From sequence record OR192075.1: a DNA stretch of 64,000 bases. The stretch is one strand, 5' to 3'. How positions within the stretch are numbered: position 1 is the stretch's first letter; each line of letters opens with the position of its first letter. Origin of the DNA: Escherichia phage MIZ6. Both the position numbers and the translations under genes were made by a program. Positions 4,692 through 64,000 of this stretch are shown in pieces. Below the pieces are notes generated by a model, which made no database searches, had not been told where the DNA came from, and saw only the letters and a program-made list of their open reading frames with translations.

Positions 4692-4757
4692 TTTTGATTC
4701 TCCTATCTCGTTGGTATGTGTGCATTATAGGGGATCACCGATCCCCTGTCAACAACT

Positions 4758-9318: not shown

Positions 9319-9633
9319 TTATTTATAAATTTCGACGATCTGCGCTGGAGTCAGCCCGTCTACATTAATCAGACTATCAAGCCCAAAACTACGGAAACCT
9401 TCAACTGCAATTTCATATACTGGCAAAGATGTTTCTGATTCTTTACGCGGTTTTTCAACATTAGGAACTAACCACTTTTCGTATGTTTCGAAAGGCATCA
9501 GTGCCGGATCTCGCGTGGCGATCATCTCACGGACAGTACCATCTTTCTTAGTAAACTGCAAAGAGTGAGTACCGACCGAAAACATTTTCTTTAGTGCTTC
9601 ACGAAGTGCGATATTATCAACTTGTTCAGTCAT
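9319..9633 (-). CDS. hypothetical protein
   Basis: ORF; ATG at 9633. Confidence 0.5.
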   Translation of the reverse strand: MTEQVDNIALREALKKMFSVGTHSLQFTKKDGTVREMIATRDPALMPFETYEKWLVPNVEKPRKESETSLPVYEIAVEGFRSFGLDSLINVDGLTPAQIVEIYK

Positions 9634-10132
9634 TATCAATACCCTTCAAATCAGTCAATAATGCTTTTGGAATACGCGTGATCGTAATATCTGCATTATT
9701 CAGAATATCAGCCCAATCACGCCCACCATTTCGATCATATGTGTCGCAATAGTATAGATGTTTAATTCCACTGTTTGCAATTGCTTTAGCGCAATCTGGA
9801 CACGGTGAAGCAGTACACCACATACTAGCGCCTTCAATCGATACACCGCTACGTGCAGCAAACAAAATAGCATTTAATTCAGCGTGGATTTCGTTTTTCT
9901 GTGACCATGCGCTATGTTCTGGTCGTTTTTCTGGGATCATTTTGCCGTCATCATCCAGCCAACCGTTTTTATGTGCATGACAGCTACAATTTACTTGCCC
10001 TGCTGGAGTTCCGTTAAATCCAGTAGAAATGATTCGCCCGTCTTTTTCAATTAGTGCGCCTACCTTCCACGAAACGCATTTAGAGTTCTTTGCGATTAGA
10101 TAGGCGATCTGCATGTAAGTTTGTGACAACAT
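9626..10132 (-). CDS. cd: dCMP deaminase
   Basis: HAELNAI and PCPDCA zinc-binding motifs; aligns to T4 Cd N-terminus (QIAYL...SKC.SWKVGA.IEK.GRIISTG.NG.PAG). Confidence 0.9.
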   Translation of the reverse strand: MLSQTYMQIAYLIAKNSKCVSWKVGALIEKDGRIISTGFNGTPAGQVNCSCHAHKNGWLDDDGKMIPEKRPEHSAWSQKNEIHAELNAILFAARSGVSIEGASMWCTASPCPDCAKAIANSGIKHLYYCDTYDRNGGRDWADILNNADITITRIPKALLTDLKGIDND

Positions 10133-12056: not shown

Positions 12057-13226
12057 TTACCAATCAATCTTATCAGCCGGAATCAGTTTCTTATAATTCC
12101 GTAGATAGTAAGTTTTCATTGAATCCAGAATACGGTCATAATCAAGACCATCAAATGCAATCATCAGACACATGAAAATATATGCTTGTGCATCACCATG
12201 TTTACGTGATTCGATAGTCGCATTGGATGCATATGTCTTTCTGTCTTCTCCCGCGTGTGCGTTATAAAATTCTGTTGCTGTCGTGAAGGCATTGCGAAGA
12301 ATAGACCTGAATGCCTCCTCGAATAGCTCGATTCGTTCCAGTGCTTCCGGTTCGCCTTCATATGCAGCACGCAAATCATCGGTTTCGCTTTCTACGACAT
12401 AGTAGATCAGATTATTAGGAAACATCGATGTGTTTTTAATGTTATGCACACCAATATACCATTCACTCTTCACTTTGAACATTTGACCGTCTTTAGTGCG
12501 TGCAACAATTCCTTCGATACCTTCTGCGGTCCGAACTTCATCAAGAATATTGCTAAAACGCGCTGAATCAACCTGTAACGCATTTACCAGATGAGGACGT
12601 AGGATTGCGTCAGCAAATAGCATTTGATGCGGTACGTACTCTCCTGTGACGTTATGGCGTACATTCAGAAGTGTTAGCGACGGTTCAGAATATTCTACAA
12701 CAATTCGGTTGCTGGGTGCTGTATATTCAAAGTTGAAAGTATAATCAGACCCAATATCAGCAATCTTAGCGCGTAGATCCGCATACTTCTCTGAATACAG
12801 AAGACCGTTTGCTCTCTCTGCCTGGCTTGAGTACAAGGCCGCTTTAGACTTCAACTGAACATAGCCGTTATCAATGTAGGTGCTTACTAGACTACCGTCC
12901 ATTTTGTCCATGACCATTTCCACATCTTCCGGCTTAAAGCGAGCGCGATCATTCTCGCCTAAATTAAAAAACTTCTCCATAGGACGAGATGCAATGCGGA
13001 CCGGACGACCTTTATCGTCAATTTCAAACATGATCCCGCGACACTCTAACGCATCTGGTTTATTCCACATTTCCGGTTTGCTCAAGTACAGATAACTAAA
13101 AATGCGCATACGGGTTTGCATCGCCGTAATTTCATCTTTGTAATAGAACGTATCAGATCCGTCACATAGTGCCATCAGATTTTTGAACAATGCTAAAACT
13201 TTTTTGTTGTTTTCTTTTGTTGACAT
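12057..13226 (-). CDS. rnlA: RNA ligase 1
   Basis: aligns to T4 Rnl1 (ALECRGIMFE...RIASRPMEKFFNL.EN; KxDG as DKMDGSL). Confidence 0.9.
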   Translation of the reverse strand: MSTKENNKKVLALFKNLMALCDGSDTFYYKDEITAMQTRMRIFSYLYLSKPEMWNKPDALECRGIMFEIDDKGRPVRIASRPMEKFFNLGENDRARFKPEDVEMVMDKMDGSLVSTYIDNGYVQLKSKAALYSSQAERANGLLYSEKYADLRAKIADIGSDYTFNFEYTAPSNRIVVEYSEPSLTLLNVRHNVTGEYVPHQMLFADAILRPHLVNALQVDSARFSNILDEVRTAEGIEGIVARTKDGQMFKVKSEWYIGVHNIKNTSMFPNNLIYYVVESETDDLRAAYEGEPEALERIELFEEAFRSILRNAFTTATEFYNAHAGEDRKTYASNATIESRKHGDAQAYIFMCLMIAFDGLDYDRILDSMKTYYLRNYKKLIPADKIDW

Positions 13227-13623
13227 AATTTGTGTTCCATTCTGGTTTAAATTTGGTGATCAAAACAGGTTCTTCGATATCGGCAGTGCTTATAATATCC
13301 TTACCCGTTGGATTCTCGATGTACAACTCAAAGCACTGTCGGTAATAGAATGTTACTGTCTTACCTTCCTCTAGCGCCTTATGAATATTCTTACTCTTGC
13401 GAGTATCCGCTGTTGGTGTTTGTCTGTTAATGCTAGTCCGGTAATAATTGATCCGCTTTCTGAGATTGACAGTCTGACCAATGTATACCAGTTCATCATC
13501 AACAACAATAGCGTAAAGAACATTTAAACGGTTCTTCTGAGGCGGCAGAATCACATCACCATCTTTACACTCTAAACATGAATATTTAACGAATCCATAG
13601 TTTTCTATTAGCTCATTAATCAT
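13162..13623 (-). CDS. denA: GIY-YIG nuclease, endonuclease II-like
   Basis: VLYAIVVDDELVYIGQT.NLRKRINYYRT GIY-YIG core; position between nrdB and rnlA as in T4. Confidence 0.6.
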   Translation of the reverse strand: MINELIENYGFVKYSCLECKDGDVILPPQKNRLNVLYAIVVDDELVYIGQTVNLRKRINYYRTSINRQTPTADTRKSKNIHKALEEGKTVTFYYRQCFELYIENPTGKDIISTADIEEPVLITKFKPEWNTNYVNKRKQQKSFSIVQKSDGTM

Positions 13624-17158: not shown

Positions 17159-17187
17159 ATTATAGCGGGGATTTCTCCCCGCGTCAA
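17159..17187 (-). promoter_or_regulatory. sigma70-like promoter (TTGACG, 17-nt palindromic spacer GCGGGGATTTCTCCCCG, TATAAT)
   Basis: hexamers on minus strand just downstream of nrdA stop. Confidence 0.5.
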
Positions 17188-19507: not shown

Positions 19508-20740
19508 TTATACTGCCATTTGAGCGGTGATCGCTGGATGGCTTTGATAGTTGTGAATTTTAAAGTCTTTCGGAGTCTTTGTCAATACCTCATCTAAAGA
19601 TTTAAATTCCGGCAACTCAATTGTTGGTTTATCAAACGGAACACGGCTTAACTGTTCCATAACTTGATCAAAGTGGTTTTTGTAAATGTGAGTATCTCCA
19701 CCAGAGAAAATCAGTTCTCCTACCTCAAGATCACACATTTTCGCTATGATGTGAGTTAACAGCGCATAGCTGGCAACATTAAAGGGCAAGCCCAAAAAGC
19801 TGTCTACGCTTCGCTGAAACCACATACAAGACAGTTTACCTTCATTGACGTAGAATTGCACGAAAGGATGACATACACCCAATACAGCATTATGTGTTCC
19901 TTGTACGTTCCATGAGTCAATGATGATACGTCGATCCGTTGGATTGTTTTTAATTTGTTCAATCACGTTTTGTAACTGGTCTTCCCAAATCTTCGGGCGA
20001 TAGACATATTCTTCATCGTCTTTAGTGCTCGATGTGTCTACGTCCATACTAGCAAAGATCGTGGTATCTGGTGCTAAAATATCCCCACCCAGATAATCAC
20101 TATCAAGTAGATAACCGAAATAACCATCATCTACCCATTCCTGGAATCCCCACAAGCAATATGCATCATTAACAAAATTAGATTGAGTCTTCCAGTGATC
20201 TGCTACTAAGAATTGATTATATTCAGAATCAAACTCTTCATAACGCATACCACGCCAGATAGCACATAAACGGTCTTCTGTGTCGTTGGTTGGCGTAAAG
20301 TCTTCTACCCACGGGTGTTTAAATGTATGTGTATATTTGCTCTTAACGCGCTTAATTTTGATTTCACCGTGTGGATGAATCGGTTTGCGTCGCCATGCCA
20401 TACCATACATATTGCCGACATTATAACCATTGAATCGCAAAGGATTCTTTTCTTTCATATCAAGACAGTTGCCGCGCCAAATGTCGAAGGCTTCTTCGTC
20501 AAACTTTCCGCGTGTAATTTCCTGTAAGCGACGGCGGTCAAGTGATCCCTCCATAAACCATAGCAATTCGCCAATTACAGAGGCTGTAGCCATCTTTTTA
20601 GTGGTCAGTAACGGAAACCCCTTGCTTAAGTCAATTCGCATCTCTGCGCCGAATTTAGAGAGCGTACCTACCCCCGTTCGGTCTTCACGAGGCCAACCGT
20701 TATCAAGAACATCACGCAATAGTTTCAAATATTCTTTCAT
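19508..20740 (-). CDS. td: thymidylate synthase with large internal insertion
   Basis: ThyA motifs (DRTGVGT, catalytic CH in VCHPF, LGLPFNVASYALL) plus an extra ~125 residues after YGMAWRR. Confidence 0.85.
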   Translation of the reverse strand: MKEYLKLLRDVLDNGWPREDRTGVGTLSKFGAEMRIDLSKGFPLLTTKKMATASVIGELLWFMEGSLDRRRLQEITRGKFDEEAFDIWRGNCLDMKEKNPLRFNGYNVGNMYGMAWRRKPIHPHGEIKIKRVKSKYTHTFKHPWVEDFTPTNDTEDRLCAIWRGMRYEEFDSEYNQFLVADHWKTQSNFVNDAYCLWGFQEWVDDGYFGYLLDSDYLGGDILAPDTTIFASMDVDTSSTKDDEEYVYRPKIWEDQLQNVIEQIKNNPTDRRIIIDSWNVQGTHNAVLGVCHPFVQFYVNEGKLSCMWFQRSVDSFLGLPFNVASYALLTHIIAKMCDLEVGELIFSGGDTHIYKNHFDQVMEQLSRVPFDKPTIELPEFKSLDEVLTKTPKDFKIHNYQSHPAITAQMAV

Positions 20741-21074: not shown

Positions 21075-21644
21075 TTACGCCTTCTTACGTTCTAAAATTT
21101 GTTCGCTGATCAGGTAATTATCAAGGAAGTAATTATGTTCTTCTTTGGTTACAAAGTCAAAATATAATTCCTGAATCATTTCCTTAGAGATACCAACATC
21201 ATATTCAAATGGATCGTTGATCCCTGAACGTTGAACATACGTTAACACAATACGGTCCGCAAAGTCAACCGCTTTTTCAATCAGGGAAGGTCCGCCGATA
21301 ACACTTACCAAACCTTGCGTTTTCTCTAGGGCTTTTAACAGATCCTTCAATTCAATTCCAGTATACACATCAGGTTGGTCGCCATTTTTAGCTTTCGGTT
21401 CTGGCTTGCTGGTATCGGTGCTAATAACCACATTCAAACGTCCCCAAAGTGCTTTAGGCAGACTTTCAAAGGTATTACGTCCCATTACTACCGCAGCAAA
21501 ATCAACCTCGCCAATAGTGCGGATTTTAAAGTTTTCCATATCTTTTTTGATTGGACGCCCCCACGGTAAACCGCCTTTAAAACCAAAAGCCCAATTTTCA
21601 TCCGACATTTTAGTGTCACCAATCGCAAATACACATTGAATCAT
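21075..21644 (-). CDS. frd: dihydrofolate reductase
   Basis: aligns to T4 Frd (GLPWGR, VMGRNTF, VIGGP); RBS AGGAGA. Confidence 0.88.
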   Translation of the reverse strand: MIQCVFAIGDTKMSDENWAFGFKGGLPWGRPIKKDMENFKIRTIGEVDFAAVVMGRNTFESLPKALWGRLNVVISTDTSKPEPKAKNGDQPDVYTGIELKDLLKALEKTQGLVSVIGGPSLIEKAVDFADRIVLTYVQRSGINDPFEYDVGISKEMIQELYFDFVTKEEHNYFLDNYLISEQILERKKA

Positions 21645-29500: not shown

Positions 29501-30296
29501 AGCGCAAGTTGTTGATAGTGATGCTATCGCTTTCGGTCAAATCAATGATGGTGGAGTCGTCGAGCATTACGCCTTTGCTGTGGAACACAATGGCGACGCG
29601 ACAGCATATAGAGACTTTATTGCAGGTCGTAACCTGTATGCGAAACAAGGCGGTTTATACATTGTTGACCAGTCTAATCCGGCAATGACTCGTTCCCCAG
29701 ATGGTATGCTGAATATCGGTCACGGTGGAAGTGTTAACATCAAGGCAGGTCATCAAACGTTAACTACCGAGATCGCCGGACAGAAATATCAGATCGTACA
29801 CGCAGGAAACGCTGACGAAGTTCTTAACCGTCAGTTTGTTAAGAATGCTGGCGATACAATGGTCGGCAAGCTGACTATGGATAATGCGCCTATTGTTTCT
29901 GTTAAGCATGAAGCTAGCGCGGCAACCGCTCCGGCAATCGGCAACATCGGTTTCTGGAATATGCGAGTTACTACCCAGAACATCAAAGAAACTTATCCAG
30001 AGAAGAAAAACGGTACTCTGATGCAATGGGGTACTGACGCGGACGGGCTTACCCAGCTTTGGTCCCCTGATGGTACTCATAAACATTATATCCGTTCCGG
30101 TACTGGTGGTCAATGGACCGCATGGGGTGAAATTTACACCAAACAGAATAAGCCTACCGCTCAGGAAATCGGGGCAGTAGTTGCAGAAGGTGGTTTAATG
30201 AACTCTATGACGGTTCGTGATTGGATCAAAGTTGGTAATGTTAAAATCATCGCCAATAATCTGACTCGTACCGTAGACTTTATCTGGGAAGACTAA
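26556..30296 (+). CDS. 34: long tail fibre proximal subunit (T4 gp34-like)
   Basis: 1246 aa; N-terminus and repeated ATQ/ITPKKL motifs match T4 gp34. Confidence 0.9.
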   Translation: MADFSQHFKATFGFDAGNEKVVNVAYADKNTSTDAVNVEFFNYHNGITQYDTTRGYDQYGTTIYQNRPYYAKEDITKPAGDFDPTKWQALRTDPRWDYIAATSGDTPLKSGDYIAADGQFANLTFSMPTKPAEGDTITVKDIGGKCGVNELSFLSSGHEFYHNGNVYNRKWYCTTPYAMNYFIFVRNRWHVYQTGTEPRGVYAQPAIDAIQMQNGDQVFRRSSLGNITLVLPKFANNGDMIQTTDLDGLTATNHVTVKVHEHAEEQSIGTSGLKEIIGKRSGHGVFIFDKTENLWRLWDGDQSVRLKPIIDDTRLQPNSYVAVFGDRDVTLTLPTNVEPGDRIQVSMQYMHGNQNCRIITPTEDTKILMQKNMVQFPKRSEYPFNGTDTWKEVSELSFNAASDYVPYLEFSYSEGDDGKKHWLVAHSHPIVERVDPTRKERVGVIALATQDETNKNHEDNPSDEVAVTPKVLANKTANETRRGIARIATQAETHQDTGSNFLDDVIVTPKKLNDCVATEARRGVMEIATQHETNEGLDDTRAITPKKLEERRASEDLAGIAEIVQVGGSAAARRGEAGTGIYNINDHAKIVTPKNINEVKATETSRGVGYLATDAEVQGATESTPQDALLITTRTLTKRTATESRTGIAEIATQEETNLGQSDNHIITPKKLHTRRATETLHGLAEIATQPEFDAGLDDARISTPLKIKTFFENAQRLKVDPTQGLNLTGDLWQGIMISGLDATEDTKGVAKVATTQLTDAGQDDTTIITPKKLQGKKATEGKEGIIRVGTQAETVAGTLANVAISPKNFKYVVQTEDTWKATEARRGFLKVATQENCFVGDNLQGSTQELGNYQHDGIAVTPKGLNYALANFLPKMATAQNSLKLGNVEAAKWARRDIDQTIESNYTFNKNVNVKGDLGCLKSGSFETLSVTKNSTDVPSNGHLVLGKRGVDGHTGITLHGTTASEGMKNSWSIIVGGTGTAQVVDSDAIAFGQINDGGVVEHYAFAVEHNGDATAYRDFIAGRNLYAKQGGLYIVDQSNPAMTRSPDGMLNIGHGGSVNIKAGHQTLTTEIAGQKYQIVHAGNADEVLNRQFVKNAGDTMVGKLTMDNAPIVSVKHEASAATAPAIGNIGFWNMRVTTQNIKETYPEKKNGTLMQWGTDADGLTQLWSPDGTHKHYIRSGTGGQWTAWGEIYTKQNKPTAQEIGAVVAEGGLMNSMTVRDWIKVGNVKIIANNLTRTVDFIWED

Positions 30297-30301
30297 TTAA
30301 A

Positions 30302-30317
30302 GGGGGCGAAAGCCCCC
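30302..30317 (+). other. intergenic stem-loop between genes 34 and 35 (no T-tract)
   Basis: GGGGGCGAAAGCCCCC palindrome immediately before RBS of gene 35. Confidence 0.4.
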
Positions 30318-30329
30318 TATGGGGTTATT

Positions 30330-31469
30330 ATGACACAAGATATAGAATTACGCAACACTGGAATTAGGTTTGCGCATTTCGACGAAGACTCTGCGACATT
30401 TACCAGCATTTCAGAAAATAACTCTGTGATGTATAAGCTGGAAGTGCGCGGATCTAATGCGGATTCTACCAAACCAGCAAGAATTAGATTTAATGGAGTG
30501 GAGATCGTTGGCACTGGCTATGAAAATGGCCTAAATTTTAAAGTTCTTACTCCAACTGGACAACTACACGAAGAAAAGGTATTCTATGGTCGCGGTGCTG
30601 TTTTGGCAATGCGTGATTATCTTTCTTTGCTGAAAGGTGACTATATCATTGCGATGGCAACGCATGGAGAATTGTTTGCAGATCCGATAAGTGATGTTGT
30701 ATTTTCTAAGATGGGATCTGTATCATTCCCGAATCACATTTTGCTACAGCAAATGCCTCGCGTATCCTATGCAGCAATTTATTCTACTAAAATGGGTAAA
30801 ATTGTGTGCGAAGGGATGCAAGCGACCCACGGGGAAGGACAAGATTCATCTATACAAATTGAGAAGGTTTATGATACTATAGATGATCTTGCTATAACAG
30901 GAACACCACAACGATTTTTAGATTATCCGGTTGAGTATGTTAGCGAAGATGCCGAACATTTCGAGCTAATACAATGGCCTCGTGATGAGACCAGCGCACC
31001 ACTTGAGGATTTTAACATAAAGGCAGGTGACAAACTATCAATATCCTTTGAATTGTTCCGTGATAGTGCCGCAGCCGCAGCCAACGTAACAGCGCGTTTC
31101 TATCACAACTACTTCACCGATGGACAATATCAAACTGGTGTTCGATACAATGCCAGCAAAAAAGACCAATGGGAAAAGTTTGAAGCCGTCTATACCGTAC
31201 CGGAAGGTGTCGATAGTGTAGTAACTGGTTGTATCAGATATCCAACCAACTCCAATGAAGGTATTGTTAAAATTAGAAACATACTAATAACGCCGATCAG
31301 TGGAGTGGTCAAAACTACTGGTCCTACTTCATTTGGTGTTAATGGTGTTAGAACAACTCATATTCAGGATAACGGTGATTTTACTAACCCTGTAATGAGT
31401 CTTCTTAAGCTGCCTAGAGACAATAAACATATCACATCCAACAACTTTAAAGAGTTCGATGTTGATTAA
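30330..31469 (+). CDS. 35: long tail fibre hinge protein (T4 gp35-like)
   Basis: 379 aa (T4 gp35 is 372 aa); position between 34 and 36. Confidence 0.75.
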   Translation: MTQDIELRNTGIRFAHFDEDSATFTSISENNSVMYKLEVRGSNADSTKPARIRFNGVEIVGTGYENGLNFKVLTPTGQLHEEKVFYGRGAVLAMRDYLSLLKGDYIIAMATHGELFADPISDVVFSKMGSVSFPNHILLQQMPRVSYAAIYSTKMGKIVCEGMQATHGEGQDSSIQIEKVYDTIDDLAITGTPQRFLDYPVEYVSEDAEHFELIQWPRDETSAPLEDFNIKAGDKLSISFELFRDSAAAAANVTARFYHNYFTDGQYQTGVRYNASKKDQWEKFEAVYTVPEGVDSVVTGCIRYPTNSNEGIVKIRNILITPISGVVKTTGPTSFGVNGVRTTHIQDNGDFTNPVMSLLKLPRDNKHITSNNFKEFDVD

Positions 31470-31481
31470 CATTTTTAACAA

Positions 31482-31510
31482 GCCGATCCATGTGGTCGGC
31501 TTTATTTTTA
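31482..31510 (+). terminator. rho-independent terminator after gene 35
   Basis: hairpin GCCGATCCATGTGGTCGGC followed by TTTATTTTTA. Confidence 0.65.
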
Positions 31511-31515
31511 TACAG

Positions 31516-31534
31516 TTGGTTAAAATGTAACCAA
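31516..31534. promoter_or_regulatory. perfect palindrome TTGGTTA-N5-TAACCAA (possible operator)
   Basis: seen in 34/35 to 36 intergenic region. Confidence 0.3.
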
Positions 31535-31631
31535 AACGAAGAAAGATCTTTAGAATAATAGAAAATTTGTTTCGGTTAAAAATTAGTCAGTGCCTCCGGC
31601 ACGTCGCGAAGCGATATTTTTGTTAACATTC

Positions 31632-33233: not shown

Positions 33234-35990
33234 ATGGCAGATTTAAGCAGAATCCAATTTAAACGCACTAGCACTAAAGGTCGTAAACCTGATGCTAGTG
33301 CGATGAATCCGGGGGAATTGGCAATCAACCTTGCGGATCAATATCTTCTTACTAAAAATGATTCCGGTGCTATTATCAATTTAAGTTGTCCTCCGGTGTA
33401 TGACCGACAAGTTAGATTCGCTGGTAAGGTTGACGGTGACAACTATATTTTAGGTAAAACTGCTAACTATATGGATGATTCAACCGCTCGCGACCTTAAC
33501 AAATTTGGTGCGTTTCGAACGAATAATGCTGATGGATGGTCTAACTTGATTCTGAACATTCCTCATTCTAGCGGTAAAGCACACGGTCGCGGGTTTGAAT
33601 TTCAATATGGTTCTAGTTCCTCTCAGGTTAAAACCTATGGCTTTGATCAGGATGGTAACAAGAGATTCAGTTACCGCATGTATCATGAAGGCGATAAACC
33701 TACACCATCGGAATTGAACGTTTACAGCAAACAAGAAGTAGATAGAATGTTTGTTAAAAACGTTAAAATGTCTACTCCTCCCGATGTAAGTCGAGGATAT
33801 TTCAAAATTGCTACCGCCATGATCCCCCAGCAAGGAAAAATGGCATTTATTCGTATCTATGGTGGTAATGGATATAACGTTAACTCTATGGATCAAGTTG
33901 ACTTTGTAGAAATCGTGATTCGTGGTGGGAATGGAAATCCTAAAGGTGTTAGTATTGCAGCATATCGACGAAATGCTTTAAATCAGCTTGAAGTATTTGC
34001 TATTAATACATCTGGTGATAACTATGATATCTATGTAAAATATGGTCGATACACCGATAACGTTATTGTAGAATTTGGAAAAACGGTCGATGTTAATTTA
34101 ACTGTTCATGATGTTCCGGCTTTTTCGGAAGCAAAACCTGCTGGTACTACCTTTGAAGGTCGTGTTATTACGATGTTCAACACCGAAAACAAAGCCGGAA
34201 CGTTGATGTTTGATAATAACTCACAAGCAACCTATGATATTGTGAGCCTTAGCAATGCACCTGATAATAGCCGAAATTATCTGCGTAAATTCCGTAGCAA
34301 AGCGAATGAAACAATATGGCATGAAACTGTTCAAGGTGATGTGTATCGTCTGGCTACTGGTTCCACCGACCAAAAAGAAGTATTAAAAATTGTTGGTAGT
34401 GATGGTTTATTTGTCAATAGACTTCATCTGCAAGGCAATAACGCGATTCGTATGTGGCGTCCTACTGGTTGTAGTAACTATTTTGAATATATGGATCAGC
34501 GAGACGGGGCTAATAAACGTCAAGGCTGGTTTGGTTTTGGTTCTACAGAAACCAACGATTTTCAATGGTATAGTGACGAAGGTAAAAACTTTGTTAAGCT
34601 AGAAGCAAGTGGTCAAGTATCTTTAAGCGCAGGTGCAACCAAAATTGTATACACTAATGGTCAATATGTAGCTGCCAATTCTGATGCATACCGTATGATC
34701 TTTGGTAATTATGGTGCATTCTGGCGTAATGACGGCACTAAAGTTTATCTTCTTTCTACTGCCGAAAATGATCGTTTTGGTGGATGGAATAGCTATCGTC
34801 CATTCATTTATGATTTAACTTCCGGTAACGTTCAATTAGGCGGTGATGGTAACGAAGATGCATTAACGTTAGAATGTGCTTCTCGTGCCGCTCGCTTTAG
34901 TAATGACGTTTACATTAAGAAAGGGCTTTTGACTTTCGACGCTGGGCGATTAAATTCCCGCGATTACTTCCGGTTTAACCATTGGGGCGATAGCAATAAC
35001 GGTCGCGATAACATCCTACAGATTGAAGACAGTCAGGGCGCACATTTTATCACTGAACGTGCTATGGGTACTGGTAACATAACAACACGTTTTAGAGGCT
35101 TTGTACGTGTAGAATCTGGTGAAATTGCATTTGATGCTAACCGTGGTTCTTCTTCGCAATTTAGTCTCCATACATGGGGTAATGAATCACGAAAACAAGT
35201 TTTTGAATGTAAGGATGCAACAAGTTATCATTGGTATACCGAACGTACTGCGGGTGGCACTGGTCCGGTTAAGTTCTCTGTTGCAGGTTCTTTCTATAGC
35301 GGAAGCGATGTTAACGTAGGCGGTAGTCTGAATTTTGGTAATGCTATTCAACGCGGCGCTAGCGTCATTACTATAGATTCTGGTTCTGCGGGTGCTGGTT
35401 CTTTTGCATCTCAACATGATGATAACGTCAAAGCACCTATTTTCCAACGTTTAGACCGTGGTGATGCGTCTATATATGTTCCTTTGATTAAGCAACGTTA
35501 TGTTCAAGGTGCAGTAACATTCTCGTTGGGTATGCTTCTTAACGAAGGTTCATGGCGAGTTCATGTTAAAGGTTCTGGTGTTGAATCTAATACTACCTTC
35601 TATAAAAACGGCGATTTCCAAGCTGGACGCAATGGTAACTTTAACGACGTTTACATTCGCTCTGACTCTCGCCTGAAAATCAACAAGGAAGAGTATAAAG
35701 AGAATGCTACCGATAAAGTAAATAATCTTAAGGTATATTCCTACGATAAGGTTAAATCTTTAACCGACCGTACTGTAATCGCTCATGAAGTTGGTATTAT
35801 TGCTCAGGATCTTGAAAAAGAATTGCCGGAAGCAGTAACAACTTCTAACATCGGCGACCCAGATAACCCAGAAGAGATCTTAACAATTTCTAACTCTGCT
35901 GTCAACGCTCTTTTAATTAAGGCGTTTCAGGAAATGAGCGAAGAATTGAAAGCCGTTAAAGCTGAACTAGCGGAACTTAAAAAGAATTAA
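33234..35990 (+). CDS. 37: long tail fibre distal subunit (T4 gp37-like) with C-terminal intramolecular chaperone domain
   Basis: N-terminus and AGAGSFASQ..YVP.IKQRYVQG block match T4 gp37; C-terminal SDSRLK autocleavage-type motif and coiled-coil tail. Confidence 0.88.
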   Translation: MADLSRIQFKRTSTKGRKPDASAMNPGELAINLADQYLLTKNDSGAIINLSCPPVYDRQVRFAGKVDGDNYILGKTANYMDDSTARDLNKFGAFRTNNADGWSNLILNIPHSSGKAHGRGFEFQYGSSSSQVKTYGFDQDGNKRFSYRMYHEGDKPTPSELNVYSKQEVDRMFVKNVKMSTPPDVSRGYFKIATAMIPQQGKMAFIRIYGGNGYNVNSMDQVDFVEIVIRGGNGNPKGVSIAAYRRNALNQLEVFAINTSGDNYDIYVKYGRYTDNVIVEFGKTVDVNLTVHDVPAFSEAKPAGTTFEGRVITMFNTENKAGTLMFDNNSQATYDIVSLSNAPDNSRNYLRKFRSKANETIWHETVQGDVYRLATGSTDQKEVLKIVGSDGLFVNRLHLQGNNAIRMWRPTGCSNYFEYMDQRDGANKRQGWFGFGSTETNDFQWYSDEGKNFVKLEASGQVSLSAGATKIVYTNGQYVAANSDAYRMIFGNYGAFWRNDGTKVYLLSTAENDRFGGWNSYRPFIYDLTSGNVQLGGDGNEDALTLECASRAARFSNDVYIKKGLLTFDAGRLNSRDYFRFNHWGDSNNGRDNILQIEDSQGAHFITERAMGTGNITTRFRGFVRVESGEIAFDANRGSSSQFSLHTWGNESRKQVFECKDATSYHWYTERTAGGTGPVKFSVAGSFYSGSDVNVGGSLNFGNAIQRGASVITIDSGSAGAGSFASQHDDNVKAPIFQRLDRGDASIYVPLIKQRYVQGAVTFSLGMLLNEGSWRVHVKGSGVESNTTFYKNGDFQAGRNGNFNDVYIRSDSRLKINKEEYKENATDKVNNLKVYSYDKVKSLTDRTVIAHEVGIIAQDLEKELPEAVTTSNIGDPDNPEEILTISNSAVNALLIKAFQEMSEELKAVKAELAELKKN

Positions 35991-49135: not shown

Positions 49136-49163
49136 ATTATAGAGAATCTCCCTTGTATGTCAA
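49136..49163 (-). promoter_or_regulatory. sigma70-like promoter (TTGACA, 16 nt, TATAAT) overlapping a terminator-like hairpin
   Basis: hexamers on minus strand between topoisomerase stop and next ATG. Confidence 0.5.
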
Positions 49164-56191: not shown

Positions 56192-56710
56192 TTAGTAGCC
56201 GCGTTCTTGACGGGCGAAGTTTTCAGCATTTTTCAGATAGTACAGCTTGAAGATATCCTTAGCGGTTAAACCTAAGCCCAGCATTTTAATCAGCACAAAA
56301 TGCCAGATATCGATCAATTCCATCGCAATTTCGGTTTTATCGTCATCTGACAGATCAGCAAATTTACGCGCTCGTGCTTCGCCGTGGTTCTTCTTCCACA
56401 CTTTAGTAATTGCGCTTGCATCTTTGCCATTTGACATGCCACCCAGGGCAACATAAAGTTCTCGTGTCTCGTCGTCGATTGCGTCATCCCACAACTTCAT
56501 CCAGTCAAGGATCTCCCCGCAAGTTTCCAGCTTATCAGGATGCGGCACCCACTCAAATTTATCAGCTAGTGCGACCTGTAAGCCTTTTTGCATATCTAAC
56601 ATTACTTGCAGCGGGTCTTTGCCGCTAGTGATTGCCTCGGAATACGCAATACCAGCTTTAGACATAGTTTCGTCGCTAACCAGACCAGCACAAGAATTAA
56701 ATTCTGACAT
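56192..56710 (-). CDS. 56: dCTPase/dUTPase (T4 gp56-like)
   Basis: colinear with T4 gp56 (KDPLQVMLDMQ, HPDKLET, ELIDIWHFVL, FKLYYLKN.ENFARQ.RGY). Confidence 0.92.
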   Translation of the reverse strand: MSEFNSCAGLVSDETMSKAGIAYSEAITSGKDPLQVMLDMQKGLQVALADKFEWVPHPDKLETCGEILDWMKLWDDAIDDETRELYVALGGMSNGKDASAITKVWKKNHGEARARKFADLSDDDKTEIAMELIDIWHFVLIKMLGLGLTAKDIFKLYYLKNAENFARQERGY

Positions 56711-56724
56711 ATTCACCTCATTAA

Positions 56725-59380: not shown

Positions 59381-60793
59381 TTAGAAAGTCATGTTATTTG
59401 CTAGCTCGTCGAGTTTTTCTCGTTTCTCGGCTTGCTGTGCGCTTTGTGGTTTAACTTGTGCATTCTCCTGATCTGCGATCTGGTTTGGTACTTCATACCA
59501 ACGCTGATTTCCTTTTTTCACACCAACGTTAAACCGTGAATAATAGTTCTTGTCACCGTAACGAGACTTGATCTGCTTCATGAGTTGAACGCCCATTTTA
59601 GCCAGGTCTTCGGTTTCGATAACACCCAACATAAAATCGGCTGTAGCCGGAAGACCTGCTGATTCAGCGGTATCACTCATGTTAAGGTCGGAAGCATCCC
59701 AACCCGCGCGGGTAGTCTGTGCCGCAGTCCAACCAACAACATCCCACTTAACAAAAAATCCTCGCAGTTCTTCCGCAATCGCCTTAACTAGTGTGTAACT
59801 ATTTTCAGAGTATACACGCAAGCGAGACGATGCGCAAATCCCCAGATAGTCAACAATCACAACATCAGGTTTAAACTGTTTCTTGAGTCGCAATTCATTC
59901 ATTAACGCCTCAAAGTGATTGGAGTTTGCGCCACCAGTCGGATACTGCTTGATCATCAATTTTCCAACCGGACGATCTCCGATCTTCTTATTCTTAACAC
60001 GCTTCATACGTGCGGAATATTCCGCAAAAGAAACATTACCATTATCCAATTCATCTAATGTAATGTCAAGCAAGTTTGCGTCGATACGTTTGGCTACGAC
60101 ATGCTCTGCCATCTCCATTGAGATATACAATACATCATAACCACATTCCATATAATCCGCAGCAAGAGAACACAAGCCAAGCGATTTACCAACGTTTACA
60201 CCAGCAAGCAACACATTTAGCGTTTTTCTTTCCGCCCCTCCTTTCGTGATTTTATTCAACATCGGCAGCTTAAACGGGATCTTATTCGCCTTAGTCTGAT
60301 ATAGCAAGAATCGTTTTTCAAAGTCATTAAACCAGTCATGACCTACATCAGAATCAAACGTAATGGATAGTGCTTCCTGCATAATTTCAGGAATAGCGCC
60401 CTCACTAGGCAATTTCTTATTCTGTTTCTCTTTTGGTAGTTGTGCGTTCGCCTGAATCTCTAGCGCCCGTGACATTGCATTATACATGGCACGGTCACGA
60501 ATAAATTTTTCGGTTTCCTTCATTAACCAATCAAGGTCTTCCGGTGTATTCTCCAGCGAATCGAGAAGAGTTTTAGCCCCTTCATATGTTGTCTGATTGC
60601 CTCTCTCCTTGTCCAAAGCAATCTGTAATGCAGTTGGCGTAGGAATATTGGAATATTCGTCTACGTGCTTTTTAATCAGCTTATAAATCAGTTTTTCTTC
60701 GTCTTCGGTGAAGTAGTCCGCTTTAAGGTGAGGCCATACATTCGTAAAGAATGCGCCATTGTAAATCAACTGTGAAAAGATAGTTTTAATCAT
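59381..60793 (-). CDS. 41: replicative DNA helicase (T4 gp41-like, DnaB family)
   Basis: 470 aa; Walker A GVNVGKS; position between uvsX and 61. Confidence 0.9.
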   Translation of the reverse strand: MIKTIFSQLIYNGAFFTNVWPHLKADYFTEDEEKLIYKLIKKHVDEYSNIPTPTALQIALDKERGNQTTYEGAKTLLDSLENTPEDLDWLMKETEKFIRDRAMYNAMSRALEIQANAQLPKEKQNKKLPSEGAIPEIMQEALSITFDSDVGHDWFNDFEKRFLLYQTKANKIPFKLPMLNKITKGGAERKTLNVLLAGVNVGKSLGLCSLAADYMECGYDVLYISMEMAEHVVAKRIDANLLDITLDELDNGNVSFAEYSARMKRVKNKKIGDRPVGKLMIKQYPTGGANSNHFEALMNELRLKKQFKPDVVIVDYLGICASSRLRVYSENSYTLVKAIAEELRGFFVKWDVVGWTAAQTTRAGWDASDLNMSDTAESAGLPATADFMLGVIETEDLAKMGVQLMKQIKSRYGDKNYYSRFNVGVKKGNQRWYEVPNQIADQENAQVKPQSAQQAEKREKLDELANNMTF

Positions 60794-61107
60794 ACATAGC
60801 CCCCAACTACACGCATAACAAAGGTCTTGAGTTTATACCAGAAAGTTTCTTTTTTCAACTTTTCTTCTGCTTCTTTGATCTGCGCGGTTAACGCCTTAAT
60901 GACGTGTGGATATACCACATCACGATCTGACGGCGTGGAGTAGTCGACCACAATACCTTTAGTGTCTGGATCGTATTCAACATTATGAATATAGACAATA
61001 TGATGTTCTCCCTCTTCATCAACAATTATCAGTTCCTGGATAACTGTCTTCATTGCTTCTTGAATCAAGCCGTGTGCTTCTTCTAAACTTGTTGGCTTCT
61101 TATCCAT
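60790..61107 (-). CDS. hypothetical protein (gp40-like by position), hydrophobic C-terminus
   Basis: synteny between 41 and uvsX; C-terminal FWYKLKTFVMRVVGGYV. Confidence 0.35.
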   Translation of the reverse strand: MDKKPTSLEEAHGLIQEAMKTVIQELIIVDEEGEHHIVYIHNVEYDPDTKGIVVDYSTPSDRDVVYPHVIKALTAQIKEAEEKLKKETFWYKLKTFVMRVVGGYV

Positions 61108-61125
61108 AATATAATCCTCTCTAGA

Positions 61126-61150
61126 TATGAAAAAGGGGCACGTAGCCCCT
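61126..61150 (-). terminator. rho-independent terminator after uvsX
   Basis: hairpin AGGGGCTACGTGCCCCT plus TTTTTCAT on minus strand. Confidence 0.6.
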
Positions 61151-61162
61151 TTACTACCATTG

Positions 61163-62233
61163 TTATGCTAACATATCTTCGATTTCTTTGTCAACTGCTT
61201 CGTCGCTGATCACTTGCCCCAGCTTATAATGATCGTTGATTGCTTCGTTAAACTTATCGTTTGTCAGAAGTGGTTTCCAGAACTCAATGCTATTGGTTTC
61301 TTTAGCACGGAACTTGCGTTCTTCGGTTTCCATCTCTCCGGTCTCGGTATTTAGGATTGAACGAGAATACCAGCCGTTTGACGGTTTCACTACCCAGCCT
61401 AACTCTACAGCCAATTCCAGCAAGCCGGAATAAGGATCGATGCCACCGCTAAATGTTACGCTAATCGGGAACTTCGATTTTTCTTTAACGGTTCGCGATT
61501 TTTCCGCATTCAGGATAAAATCATAACCAGTAATTTCGGTTCCTTCTTTCTGCTGACGACGACCAATAATGAAAACTTCATTGGCTGAATACATCGCGCC
61601 CGTACCGCCGGACATAACGGTTTTACTAAACATTTCTTGCGTTTCGTAAGTGTGGTTAATAGCGATGCACGGGATATCATTCATAGTCAGATACGGCGTA
61701 ACCATACGGAACAAGCCTTTAAGTGCTTTAGCTCGCGTCATATCCTGTGCGGATTTCTCATTAATCGCGTCTTCAACTTCTTTTTTACTTGCTAAGTTAC
61801 CGATTGAGTCAATAAAGATGATCACTTTATCTTCACGGGTAATTTGCTCAAGCTGGTTCATGATTTCAAATTTAAGTTCTTCGATGTTCTTGATCGGAAC
61901 ATGCACCACGCGATCAGGATCTACACCCATAGATTCAAGATAAGCGGATGTAATACCGAACTCAGAATCAAAGAACAAACACGCCGCATCAGGATTCTGT
62001 TTCATGTATGCACTAACGCAAGTTAATCCCATGTTTGATTTAAAGTGCTTAGACGGACCAGCAAAGAAAATCAGACCAGATTGAAAGCCTTTTTTAAGAT
62101 CACCTGAAAACGCAATATTCAGCATCGGGATCTTAGTGCGAGTATTTGTTTTTTCGTTAAAGAAGCTGGATTTAGACAGTACCGCAGTAGTTTTCAGGGT
62201 AGAGTTCTTTTTCAGTTTTTCCAGTACAGACAT
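61163..62233 (-). CDS. uvsX: recombinase UvsX (RecA-like)
   Basis: near-colinear with T4 UvsX (GPSKHFKSN Walker A, PCIAINHTYETQEMFSKTVM.GGTG). Confidence 0.94.
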   Translation of the reverse strand: MSVLEKLKKNSTLKTTAVLSKSSFFNEKTNTRTKIPMLNIAFSGDLKKGFQSGLIFFAGPSKHFKSNMGLTCVSAYMKQNPDAACLFFDSEFGITSAYLESMGVDPDRVVHVPIKNIEELKFEIMNQLEQITREDKVIIFIDSIGNLASKKEVEDAINEKSAQDMTRAKALKGLFRMVTPYLTMNDIPCIAINHTYETQEMFSKTVMSGGTGAMYSANEVFIIGRRQQKEGTEITGYDFILNAEKSRTVKEKSKFPISVTFSGGIDPYSGLLELAVELGWVVKPSNGWYSRSILNTETGEMETEERKFRAKETNSIEFWKPLLTNDKFNEAINDHYKLGQVISDEAVDKEIEDMLA

Positions 62234-62244
62234 TATTAATACCT

Positions 62245-62472
62245 CTATTCAGTTAATCCGTAATACTTTAATTGCTTCATTGTTATTCGATCTTTGTAGT
62301 GCTCTTGAATTAACTTTTTCATCGCATCAACATCGATCGTCACAAATACTTCGTTGCTGTGATTTCCGTGAACTTTCTTGAAATGCTCTATGCCTTCCTC
62401 ACGTTCACGTTTAATCTTTTCAATGTCTCTCATAATATATTTCTCACGTTGGCGGGTATCGTCACCCAACAC
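62245..62472 (-). CDS. small hypothetical protein (probably starts at ATG 62433)
   Basis: RBS GTGAGAAAT before internal ATG. Confidence 0.45.
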   Translation of the reverse strand: MLGDDTRQREKYIMRDIEKIKREREEGIEHFKKVHGNHSNEVFVTIDVDAMKKLIQEHYKDRITMKQLKYYGLTE

Positions 62473-62494
62473 CCGCCATTATACACACTTTATC

Positions 62495-64000
62495 TTAAAT
62501 GTCAAACAGGTCCGTAAGCGATGCCACCTTTTCATATTGCAGCTTTGCAGCCGTGGTAATGTTCTCCAGTGGTTTGACGAAAGTCTTATTAAACAACAAA
62601 GGCCAGTCTAACCACTTCAACACTTCTGATTCAATTTCTGGCGGAATACGAGTACCAGACAACCAACCAAAACAGATTTCTCCAAACGGATTTCGATCTT
62701 TAAGCGGTACAATCATAACCTTCTCGCCTTCACGAATCGGATCTAGTCCGAATTTTCGAGCATTACGATTATAACACAATACACTCTTAACCGCATACGG
62801 ACAACCCTTAATCGGATACCCGTTTGAATCGCTGTATTTCTGTAGGTTGTTTGCCGATGATACCGCAGCAACCTCAAGATAGTCAAGTTTTCTAAACTCT
62901 TGCTCAAAAATACCGTAGTATTCCTGCAATGACTCTTCCCCTTCCTGCAACATACGGCGAATACATTCTTTCAGTGATTTCTGACATGCTTTAGGGGTAG
63001 AGCTACGTTGCGTTTCCAATCCCATGATTTTTAGCTTAGGTTCAGCAAAGCGCGTTCCTTCCATATCCCAAACATTAAGAGCATAACGCTTTTTACCAGT
63101 CCAGAATCCACCGATACCCGCAGATTTCAACGGAGGACCAGCAATTGCCTCACGGTCCATAAACATCAAGTGCTCATAGTTATTCATGTACTCGCATAAC
63201 TCGCGATATCCCTTGTCGATAATAGGTTCCATTCGATGTTTACCGAAATTATCAAGGAAGTCAACAAGTTTTTCGGTATCGTCGAAACGGTCTTCCCCGC
63301 CAACCTTATCAATAACATTGTTAACCAGCACATAAACGGAGTCAGTATCACAATAACGAACATATGCAAAATCGGTTGTTCCGCAAAGCTCGTTTAAGTA
63401 TTCGTTAATCTTACGCTCAATCCACTGAATTGCAAGCTGACCAAACAAGGTGATCGCACTAGCGTTACGGAGATCATAAAAACGGAATTTAGGATTCCCC
63501 AACGCACCATAAAGGGAGTTGATCAAAACTTTACGAGAAAGCTGGTTTGTATTGCACAAGATCGACTCGTCTTTACATTCTTCCAGCAATTTCTCTAAGG
63601 CATCTTTACTTAATTCAGAAAGCATCGATTTAAACGCTTCATCAAAGTCGTGACGCACTTCAACGCTATAGCTAATGGTTCCCCCATAAACATGATTTTC
63701 ATCGTGTAGAATCGCTTTACATAGTTCAGCATTGCGATCACATGCCAACATCATGTTTTTGTACTGCTTGCGCTGGTCGAATACCTTTTTAATCTCAATC
63801 GGTACGATACCATGAATATCTTTTCGATACATCCACCCGTTAGGCGAGCAAGAATACTCATCACTCGGACGTGGTGCAGTTTTATTGATATACTCGTGCA
63901 TCGGTGCAGCATCAAAAGATCCAGCGATTGTTTCAGGCGAAATATTAACCTGTCGAATAATAGATGGATACAGACTTGTCAAGTCAAAGCTCATCATCCA
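62495..64000 (-). CDS. 43: DNA polymerase family B (T4 gp43-like), C-terminal part; 5' end beyond window
   Basis: motif A DLTSLYPSII; frame open to window end. Confidence 0.9.
   Translation of the reverse strand, partial: WMMSFDLTSLYPSIIRQVNISPETIAGSFDAAPMHEYINKTAPRPSDEYSCSPNGWMYRKDIHGIVPIEIKKVFDQRKQYKNMMLACDRNAELCKAILHDENHVYGGTISYSVEVRHDFDEAFKSMLSELSKDALEKLLEECKDESILCNTNQLSRKVLINSLYGALGNPKFRFYDLRNASAITLFGQLAIQWIERKINEYLNELCGTTDFAYVRYCDTDSVYVLVNNVIDKVGGEDRFDDTEKLVDFLDNFGKHRMEPIIDKGYRELCEYMNNYEHLMFMDREAIAGPPLKSAGIGGFWTGKKRYALNVWDMEGTRFAEPKLKIMGLETQRSSTPKACQKSLKECIRRMLQEGEESLQEYYGIFEQEFRKLDYLEVAAVSSANNLQKYSDSNGYPIKGCPYAVKSVLCYNRNARKFGLDPIREGEKVMIVPLKDRNPFGEICFGWLSGTRIPPEIESEVLKWLDWPLLFNKTFVKPLENITTAAKLQYEKVASLTDLFDI

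Follow-up and report, generated by a model that had tools for sequence, protein, structure and literature searches.

The uvsX–gene 43 region of Escherichia phage MIZ6 carries neither a dCMP hydroxymethylase gene (gene 42) nor a beta-glucosyltransferase gene (beta-gt); their absence between uvsX and the DNA polymerase gene is real but ordinary for RB49-like coliphages, and already known. It is highly probable that the phage belongs to the RB49-like Krischvirus lineage, which has no hydroxymethylcytosine (hmC) pathway and contains ordinary cytosine, the chemistry having been measured in the relatives RB49 and TB34. The 261-bp interval itself is an early promoter and stem-loop of the PeSL type (promoter-early stem-loop; see below) followed by a genus-restricted ORFan, an arrangement already annotated in RB49. 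The stretch of DNA that was analysed, hereafter the window, comprises 64,000 nucleotides of MIZ6 (OR192075.1), and positions refer to it unless stated otherwise.

The interval between uvsX and gene 43

The gap between the two genes spans positions 62234-62494 (261 bases), which coincides exactly with the segment singled out in an earlier note on this DNA. It is bordered by the ATG start codon of uvsX (62233-62231, minus strand) and by the stop codon of gene 43 (62497-62495, minus strand). The window ends within gene 43, whose 3' part occupies 62495..64000 (minus strand); it is seen here as a 500-aa open reading frame ending at 62495, which the MIZ2 annotation names DNA polymerase and the RB49 annotation gp43. 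On the other side, uvsX (61163..62233, minus strand) codes for a RecA-like recombinase with 63% identity to T4 UvsX and 100% identity to RB49 UvsX. Read along the minus strand, the order of elements is the end of gene 43, which includes a −35 hexamer, a spacer, a −10 hexamer, a stem-loop, an ORF of 62 codons and the GAGG Shine-Dalgarno sequence of uvsX; by direct reading of the sequence, the latter (62242..62245, minus strand) overlaps the TAG stop codon of the 62-aa ORF. The earlier note had described the gap as holding only an ORF of about 62-75 aa and a hairpin; both are indeed there, but a perfect σ70 promoter had been overlooked. In the GenBank record of RB49, the same interval is annotated with a 'hypothetical early promoter' (−35 and −10 signals) and with RB49ORF025c, a hypothetical protein.

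The segment from 60500 to 64000 (3.5 kb compared) is 100% identical to Escherichia phages MIZ2 (OR167178) and MIZ3 (OR167179), both Straboviridae of the genus Krischvirus, and 98-99% identical to RB49 (98.3%), Phi1, JSE, GEC-3S and about 55 other phage records. Apart from one base, at window position 35911, the whole window corresponds to positions 32001-96001 of MIZ2. Relative to MIZ3 the offset does not vary, and the counterpart there is probably 32001-96000. The complete MIZ2 genome (163,666 bp) was used for the whole-genome searches described below.

Whole-genome search for hydroxymethylcytosine genes

Two kinds of search were applied to the MIZ2 genome. The first was a tblastn search (E <= 10) with the T4 proteins gp42, beta-gt, alpha-gt, gp56, Dam, Imm, Imm.1, SegA, Alc, DenA, DenB, Ndd, Arn, Cd, Frd, MotA and AsiA, and also UvsX, as the queries. 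In the second, HMMs built from proteins of T4 and of the Gelderlandvirus CGG4-1 were run, with filters off, against all 1591 stop-to-stop segments from the six reading frames; the T6-type beta-alpha-glucosyltransferase (TAGT) was sought by phmmer. No significant tblastn match to beta-gt, alpha-gt, alc, denB, ndd, arn, imm, imm.1 or segA was obtained in the MIZ2 genome; the best match of the alc, denB and arn set, for arn (E = 0.006 over 46 residues), lies inside a baseplate gene and was judged spurious. Likewise, neither the HMMs nor phmmer gave a match below E = 0.1 for beta-gt, beta-alpha-gt, alpha-gt or imm among the six-frame segments; for the glucosyltransferases, all matches by tblastn, HMM or phmmer stayed at or above E = 0.2. 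The searches with gp42 found td alone, and weakly (tblastn, E = 0.007; HMM, E = 0.013). Finally, a Pfam scan of the 30 largest hypothetical proteins of MIZ2, down to about 120 aa, revealed no glycosyltransferase and no second thymidylate synthase (TS)-like domain; smaller proteins are too short for a TS or glycosyltransferase fold.

The td gene (19508..20740, minus strand) is the only member of the thymidylate synthase superfamily in the genome. Its product is unusually long (410 aa) and was considered as a disguised dCMP hydroxymethylase. This candidate was rejected: Td matches the Pfam profile Thymidylat_synt with E = 1e-84, as well as the NCBIfam thymidylate synthase equivalogs, the catalytic Cys is present, and the dUMP-selecting position, in the motif LGLPFNVASY, is occupied by Asn, as opposed to the Asp found in gp42. 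As judged from these features, td is a true dUMP-specific thymidylate synthase.

The earlier note had left room for modification genes lying elsewhere. With respect to gene 42 and the glucosyltransferases this suggestion is refuted by the tblastn and HMM searches; a gene 42 homologue outside the interval, the finding that the note itself had named as contrary to its proposal, was looked for genome-wide and none was found. What the note had said of gene 42 and beta-gt in the interval thus holds for the entire MIZ2 genome. That a gene 42 homologue and DNA glucosyltransferases are nevertheless encoded at another locus, so that the phage still makes (glucosyl-)hydroxymethylcytosine, is prompted solely by the retention of gp56 and denA homologues (see below), and we consider the chance of it negligible: td, with its dUMP-specific Asn, stands alone in its superfamily genome-wide, no glycosyltransferase domain occurs among the 30 largest hypothetical proteins, and the published distribution of these genes agrees (PMC2993671; PMC12115623; PMC13390438). 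On the evidence of the genome sequence, the hmC pathway is absent, not relocated.

The nucleotide-metabolism genes that are kept

The earlier note had listed a denA-like nuclease, a dCMP deaminase, td and frd as present, and all four were found, on the minus strand. The denA (endonuclease II) homologue (13162..13623, minus strand) codes for a GIY-YIG domain protein with 49% identity to T4 DenA; cd (dCMP deaminase; 9626..10132, minus strand) for a protein with 56% identity to T4 Cd and a Pfam dCMP_cyt_deam_1 domain; and frd (dihydrofolate reductase; 21075..21644, minus strand) for a protein with 35% identity to T4 Frd and a Pfam DHFR_1 domain. The window also contains a homologue of gene 56, of the dCTPase/dUTPase family (56192..56716, minus strand), whose product aligns with T4 gp56 along the entire length at 51% identity (E = 2.5e-53) and matches Pfam dUTPase_2 and a PHROG of nucleoside triphosphate pyrophosphohydrolases.

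The note had implied a puzzle in the presence of denA, cd, td and frd despite the lack of gene 42. The puzzle dissolves when the relatives of T4 are considered together, since this set is common to nearly all of them, whether they make hmC or not (PMC2993671). Genes 56, cd, frd, td, nrdAB, tk, 1, denA and dexA are auxiliary-metabolism genes widespread among T4 relatives (Petrov et al., 2010; PMC2993671). Gene 56 is found in all of the phages listed in that work except the giant Aeromonas and Vibrio phages, and almost every relative of T4 has denA; the distribution of gene 42, denB and alc is restricted to the T-even, JS98, RB69, CC31, Acinetobacter-phage and 44RR groups (PMC2993671, Table 4). 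In a 2025 survey, Krischvirus was scored as positive for the dCTPase and denA and as negative for hmC, denB, ndd and alc (PMC12115623), a pattern that the gene content of the complete MIZ2 genome reproduces exactly. Thus, denA, cd, td, frd and gene 56 together present no paradox, because they are part of a general T4-like nucleotide-metabolism set.

The products of cd, td, frd, nrd and the gene 56 homologue would serve the general supply of dNTPs, with conversion of C to T nucleotides, and not the synthesis of hmC. More specifically, gp56, Cd, Td and Frd may form a route from dCTP and dUTP to dTMP, which would suit a genome with an A+T content of 59.5%; the part assigned to gp56 in this route is likewise putative. 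The retention of a homologue of the dCTPase gp56 in a phage with dC in its DNA is a point that counts against the explanation favoured here. On the published gene distribution, gp56 is not diagnostic of the hmC system, as it is also found in T4 relatives that do not make hmC (PMC2993671).

The state of cytosine in the DNA

The chemistry of the DNA has been determined directly in two close relatives. RB49 has neither the hydroxymethylase nor the beta-glucosyltransferase, and neither hmC nor ghmC is found in its DNA (Yaung et al., 2014; PMC4041780); in the same study HpaII and NheI, neither of which cleaves where cytosine is modified, digested the DNA of RB49 and left that of T4 uncut (PMC4041780). 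For the Krischvirus TB34, HPLC/MS of hydrolysed DNA revealed no detectable modified nucleoside, and in tests of the type IV enzyme BrxU this phage provided the control without modification (2026; PMC13390438). Of the two alternatives that the earlier note had offered, the first, unmodified cytosine, is therefore supported both by the genome-wide absence of hmC genes and by the measurements on RB49 and TB34 (PMC4041780; PMC13390438). Its view that the modification state is unclear does not stand, as the literature on RB49-type phages has been settled for years in favour of ordinary cytosine; the absence of hmC genes from phages of this type is itself already published and not new.

Ordinary cytosine would imply sensitivity to classical restriction and to CRISPR-Cas, and insensitivity to type IV enzymes of the GmrSD/BrxU type. 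It would also imply high-frequency generalised transduction, with a bearing on the safety of phage therapy; these consequences have already been discussed in the literature. In this sense the result re-derives the textbook difference between T-even and pseudo-T-even phages.

Cytosine that is not replaced could still be methylated at specific sites, and the genome encodes three DNA-methyltransferase-like proteins: Dam, an enzyme with an NPPF motif and a short protein resembling C5-cytosine methyltransferases (MTases). The Dam homologue, with a DPPY motif, shows 46% identity to T4 Dam. The NPPF-motif protein (CDS0259) has Eco57I and MTS matches, and its gene is embedded in the baseplate gene cluster. 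The third protein (238 aa) is encoded just upstream of the window, and outside it, at MIZ2 positions 30915-31631 (minus strand); the annotated start is 15 codons too short, giving an annotated form of 223 aa. The sequences FDGSG, PPC(T) and ENP of this protein are retained without change in 30 homologues, and we take them, having recognised them by eye, to be the C5-MTase motifs I (FxGxG), IV (PC, with the catalytic Cys) and VI (ENV), in the canonical order. The family comprises more than 7000 short proteins, some with a precomputed PF00145 match, and bears the UniRef name 'C-5 cytosine-specific DNA methylase'.

These observations raise the possibility, which we hold tentatively and as somewhat less than an even chance, that the DNA carries site-specific methylation giving partial protection against restriction: m6A, by Dam and the NPPF-motif enzyme, and possibly a C5 modification, by the short protein. 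In its favour speak the DPPY motif of the Dam homologue, the NPPF motif of CDS0259 with its Eco57I and MTS matches, and, for the third protein, the invariant motifs together with the domain and name assigned to its homologues. It sits less well with the TB34 nucleoside analysis, which detected no modified nucleoside (PMC13390438), and with the cleavage of RB49 DNA by HpaII (PMC4041780). C5 methylation in particular is weakened by the short protein itself: its 223-aa annotated form has no match to Pfam PF00145 at E <= 0.01 (the PADLOC profile MTase_II gives E = 3.6e-4), no obvious target-recognition domain is seen, and Foldseek returned generic Rossmann-fold methyltransferases only. The fold is that of a C5-MTase catalytic domain. 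Site-specific methylation is distinct from base replacement; it is compatible with a lineage that lacks the hmC pathway and keeps ordinary cytosine, and would refine that explanation.

The discordant report on phage SAP

One published result departs from this picture. For the Krischvirus SAP, which is 99.96% identical to TB34, about one third 5-hmdC and about two thirds alpha-gentiobiosyl-methyl-dC were found by HPLC/MS; no genes for this modification were identifiable, and the authors describe it as "as yet unexplained" (PMC13390438). In the interval studied here SAP is 98.1% identical to the window. Taken at face value, the report would mean that Krischvirus may carry hmC or glycosylated hmC through a pathway unrelated by homology to gp42 and to the glucosyltransferases, or one obtained in trans, a reading to which the sensitivity of SAP to BrxU lends further weight (PMC13390438) and which we nonetheless regard as very improbable. 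Seven T6-like Tequatrovirus phages processed alongside SAP in that study share its modification profile, and of the DNAs treated with BrxU that of SAP was cut least, although it is described as having "the same modifications as TB37" (PMC13390438). The measurements of RB49 and TB34 as unmodified also count against it (PMC4041780; PMC13390438).

The differences between the SAP and TB34 genomes, which we compared on the basis of the authors' published variant table, bear on the same question. Most of the entries are 1-nt indels (PMC13390438), which would frameshift the DNA polymerase, sliding clamp, gp47, topoisomerase, NrdB, uvsX and baseplate genes of TB34, a viable phage. The remaining variants are SNPs, all of the C>T or G>A type; 11 were mapped onto MIZ2, and the synonymous ones affect, in eight of eight cases, the middle position of a CCNGG pentamer. 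Both patterns, that of the indels and that of the CCNGG SNPs, look like sequencing artefacts. If the variants are artefacts, the genomes of SAP and TB34 are effectively identical, and a genetic cause of the chemical difference is therefore unlikely. We infer that the SAP result more likely stems from a sample mix-up, a mislabelled stock or a mixed lysate. We give very little credence to the broader proposition that hmC and gentiobiosyl-hmC can, in certain circumstances, take the place of all cytosine in the packaged DNA of RB49-like phages, with neither a gp42-type hydroxymethylase nor a known glycosyltransferase in the genome. Were it true, replacement of the SAP type would imply a pathway hidden among the ORFans, or supply in trans, for example from a co-infecting T-even phage. 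The SAP report is the only live question near the subject of this work.

The early promoter and the stem-loop

The promoter that precedes the small ORF (62478..62505, minus strand) matches the σ70 consensus at 12 of 12 positions: the −35 hexamer TTGACA (62505-62500) sits within the last codons of gene 43 and is separated by a 16-nt spacer from the −10 hexamer TATAAT (62483-62478). Against a chance expectation of 0.08, the window has ten such perfect promoters, each of them on the minus strand; when up to one mismatch is allowed there are 35 promoter-like sites in the window, again all on the minus (early-gene) strand, and many of them are accompanied by GGGGATC...GATCCCC hairpins.

Directly after the −10 box lies a 12-bp stem-loop (62450..62478, minus strand), with the arms GGCGGGTGTTGG and CGATACCCGCC, the core GGCGGG/CCCGCC and the loop GGUGA. 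In a 75-nt RNA context it folds with −25.7 kcal/mol (z = −5.4), and none of 200 shuffled sequences folds as well; the local hairpin energy at this site, −22.2 kcal/mol, is the lowest among the 35 promoter-like sites of the window. The stem-loop is identical in RB49. That the hairpin ends gene 43 transcripts in the manner of a canonical intrinsic terminator was considered and found to be unsupported: the stem is not followed by a T-run, and a terminator scan made no call at this position.

Read by the unmodified host RNA polymerase, the consensus σ70 promoter would initiate early transcripts that cover the 62-aa ORFan, uvsX and genes 40 and 41. No homologue of motA or asiA was found in the complete MIZ2 genome by tblastn with the T4 proteins (E <= 10), and it is because of this absence that we think the phage relies on σ70 promoters where T4 uses middle promoters; the data suggest that the former take the place of the latter in this phage. 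Transcription would start near position 62471, about 7 nt past the −10 box and within the 5' arm of the stem; with the start inside this arm, the complete hairpin could form only in RNA that reads through from gene 43. In such transcripts the stem-loop would act to attenuate, or to stabilise at the 3' end, the RNA coming from upstream, and the promoter would re-initiate transcription of ORF025c, uvsX, 40 and 41.

The small ORFan

The RB49ORF025c homologue (62245..62433, minus strand) is annotated as a hypothetical protein in both MIZ2 and RB49. Two start codons come into consideration, ATG at 62433, giving 62 aa, and GTG at 62472, giving 75 aa; the Shine-Dalgarno sequence upstream of the ATG (GAG) is weak. 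The 75-aa form was rejected: its GTG is part of the stem-loop sequence and does not lie downstream of the predicted transcription start, and the PHROG profile and both GenBank annotations have 62 aa. The protein matches phrog_12120 (PHROGs; no function given) over 62 of 62 positions (E = 4e-42), and no match was found in Pfam, NCBIfam or PADLOC. Its relatives in a collection of 5.8 billion proteins are only those at least 94% identical, near-identical copies from Krischvirus. At the nucleotide level, the whole 261-bp interval occurs at 97-100% identity in 58 phage records, of the genus Krischvirus wherever a genus is stated, and in no further phage of the collection searched. A single-sequence AF2 model of the protein, with three helices, is poor (pLDDT 66). 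Our best guess, by analogy with other ORFans linked to PeSLs (see below), is that it may be a small accessory protein expressed early; nothing that we have seen suggests a link to DNA modification.

Comparison with PeSL cassettes

About 50 PeSL cassettes have been described in RB49 and phi1 (Arbiol et al., 2010; PMC2839356; Comeau et al., 2014; PMC4122927). A PeSL consists of a near-perfect promoter of the form TTGACA-N17-TATAAT and a stem-loop, usually with a G-tract and a C-tract as its arms, and is located between an upstream stop codon and the Shine-Dalgarno sequence and ATG of a downstream ORFan (PMC2839356; PMC4122927). Five subclasses are distinguished by the position of the stem-loop, which in one of them closely follows the −10 box (PMC2839356). 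The element in the interval resembles these cassettes in its 12/12 σ70 promoter (here with a 16-nt spacer) and its GGCGGG...CCCGCC stem-loop, in its intergenic position between the stop codon of gene 43 (62495) and the ATG of ORF025c (62433), with a Shine-Dalgarno sequence present, and in having the stem-loop downstream of the −10 box, as in one of the five subclasses. It differs in two respects: the 'AT-rich region' found upstream in PeSLs is here the coding end of gene 43, and the ORFan is conserved throughout the genus and not variable. The element at 62450-62505, which has all of the sequence features of the PeSL class, thus fits this class, as a candidate assigned by those features; the list for RB49 holds about 51 PeSLs.

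For other PeSLs (193/192, 206/205 and 211/210), strong promoter activity of lacZ fusions and terminator-like attenuation have been reported (PMC2839356), and on this precedent promoter and terminator or attenuator activity are predicted for the element in the interval. In other relatives of T4 the gene 43 locus is plastic and associated with PeSLs (PMC2839356).

Comparison with T4 and its relatives

The flanking genes 43, uvsX, 40 and 41 are shared between this phage and T4, and what sets them apart is the hmC-specific part of the modification module of T4 and the Tevenvirinae (42, 56, 1, alpha-gt, beta-gt, alc, denB and arn). Homologues of gp56, DenA, Dam, Cd, Td and Frd are held in common, whereas gp42, the glucosyltransferases, Alc, DenB and Arn are lacking here, as are imm, imm.1 and segA of the T4 interval. 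The earlier note had rightly placed beta-gt and gene 42 in that interval, but the account was incomplete, segA, imm and imm.1 being found there as well: in T4 the order is 43, imm.1, imm, 42, beta-gt, segA, uvsX. At the same junction, the Gelderlandvirus CGG4-1, also of the Tevenvirinae, has 43, a hypothetical gene, imm, 42, beta-alpha-gt, beta-gt and uvsX. In the Pseudotevenvirus Miller and the Slopekvirus-like Klebsiella phage Roth26, T4 relatives counted among those with dC, uvsX follows 43 within about 75-80 bases, with no ORF in between; RB43-type phages are listed as lacking hmC genes (PMC12115623). Compared with Miller and Roth26, Krischvirus has an extra promoter, stem-loop and ORFan at the 43-uvsX junction. 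Within the sample examined, then, a modification cassette lies between 43 and uvsX only in the two Tevenvirinae, T4 and CGG4-1, and the junction is compact in the three other T4 relatives. The 42/beta-gt/imm cassette of the Tevenvirinae would simply not be part of the type of genome to which MIZ6 belongs.

The closest likeness is to RB49, Phi1 and JSE (Krischvirus, 'pseudo-T-even'), with 98-100% nucleotide identity and the same order of 43, early promoter, ORF025c, uvsX, 40 and 41. These phages likewise lack gene 42, the glucosyltransferases, alc and denB, and likewise have 56, denA, cd, td and frd; the difference from RB49 amounts to three substitutions in 296 bases around the interval, and to nothing of substance.

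Early-type promoter-like sites and a retained gp56 homologue

Sequences resembling sigma-70 promoters, with no more than one mismatch, occur 35 times in the whole window, and all 35 are on the minus strand (for example, at 4724-4752, 17159-17187 and 49136-49163). Ten of these sites are perfect, as compared with 0.08 expected by chance over the whole window. At many of the 35 sites a GGGGATC...GATCCCC hairpin lies between or over the hexamers, and the hairpin-bearing promoter sites belong to the PeSL (promoter-early stem-loop) family of RB49, cassettes formed by a sigma-70 promoter and an adjacent stem-loop. No homologues of motA or asiA, the T4 genes for middle transcription, were detected by tblastn in the whole genome of the Krischvirus MIZ2; their absence is consistent with consensus sigma-70 promoters replacing middle promoters of the T4 type.

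A full-length homologue of the dCTPase/dUTPase gp56, with 51% identity to the T4 protein, is encoded at 56192-56716 (minus strand). The gene is retained in a phage that needs dCTP for its own DNA. Retention of gp56 in such phages has already been remarked upon in the literature.

An insertion in td and a difference in the tail fibre

The thymidylate synthase gene, td (19508-20740, minus strand), codes for a product of 410 residues, a length due to an in-frame insertion of about 146 amino acids (approximately 19991-20428) that separates the YGxxWR motif from the DQ motif. Among the Krischvirus-type records that carry it, the insert is 92-100% conserved; regions annotated as HNH endonuclease in the Vibrio phages D181 and D69, as well as a protein annotated as hypothetical in Klebsiella phage phiKp_21, are about 33% similar to it. 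The insert may be a domain derived from a homing endonuclease, either domesticated or a relic.

The sole difference between the window and MIZ2 is at position 35911, where MIZ2 has one extra G, within the ORF for the distal long-tail-fibre protein (33234-35990, plus strand). The extra G shifts the frame in which the C-terminal end of the protein is read, so that the protein has 918 residues in the window and is annotated with 895 in MIZ2. The difference could be due to an error in sequencing or to variation in host range, and it suggests that the window corresponds to phage MIZ3.

Methyltransferase-like genes and the comparison of SAP with TB34

Outside the window, a three-gene cluster (MIZ2 30066-31631, minus strand) codes for a short C5-cytosine-methyltransferase-like protein of 238 residues (15 codons are missing from the 5' end of the annotated gene), a Cys-rich ORF of 109 residues and a 172-residue DUF262/GmrSD_N-domain protein that matches PADLOC NsnA and PD-T4-2_A. 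The GmrSD-N-like domain could, in a phage with unmodified DNA, be directed at the modified DNA of competitors. An N6-adenine-methyltransferase-like gene with an NPPF motif and Pfam matches to Eco57I and MTS (MIZ2 153144-153983, plus strand) is found on the late strand within the baseplate gene cluster, an unusual location for a DNA methylase.

The differences between the Krischviruses SAP, reported to contain hydroxymethylcytosine, and TB34, reported with canonical cytosine, are mostly 1-nt indels, the remainder being C>T or G>A SNPs (PMC13390438, Table S5). Such indels would cause frameshifts in essential genes, and uvsX of TB34 is apparently split by one of the same kind. Among the SNPs mapped onto MIZ2 (including dam c.57, gp44 c.156 and portal c.1044), the synonymous ones all lie at the central base of CCNGG (8/8). 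The pattern of differences looks like systematic sequencing error, which undercuts a genetic explanation for the hydroxymethylcytosine reported in SAP.
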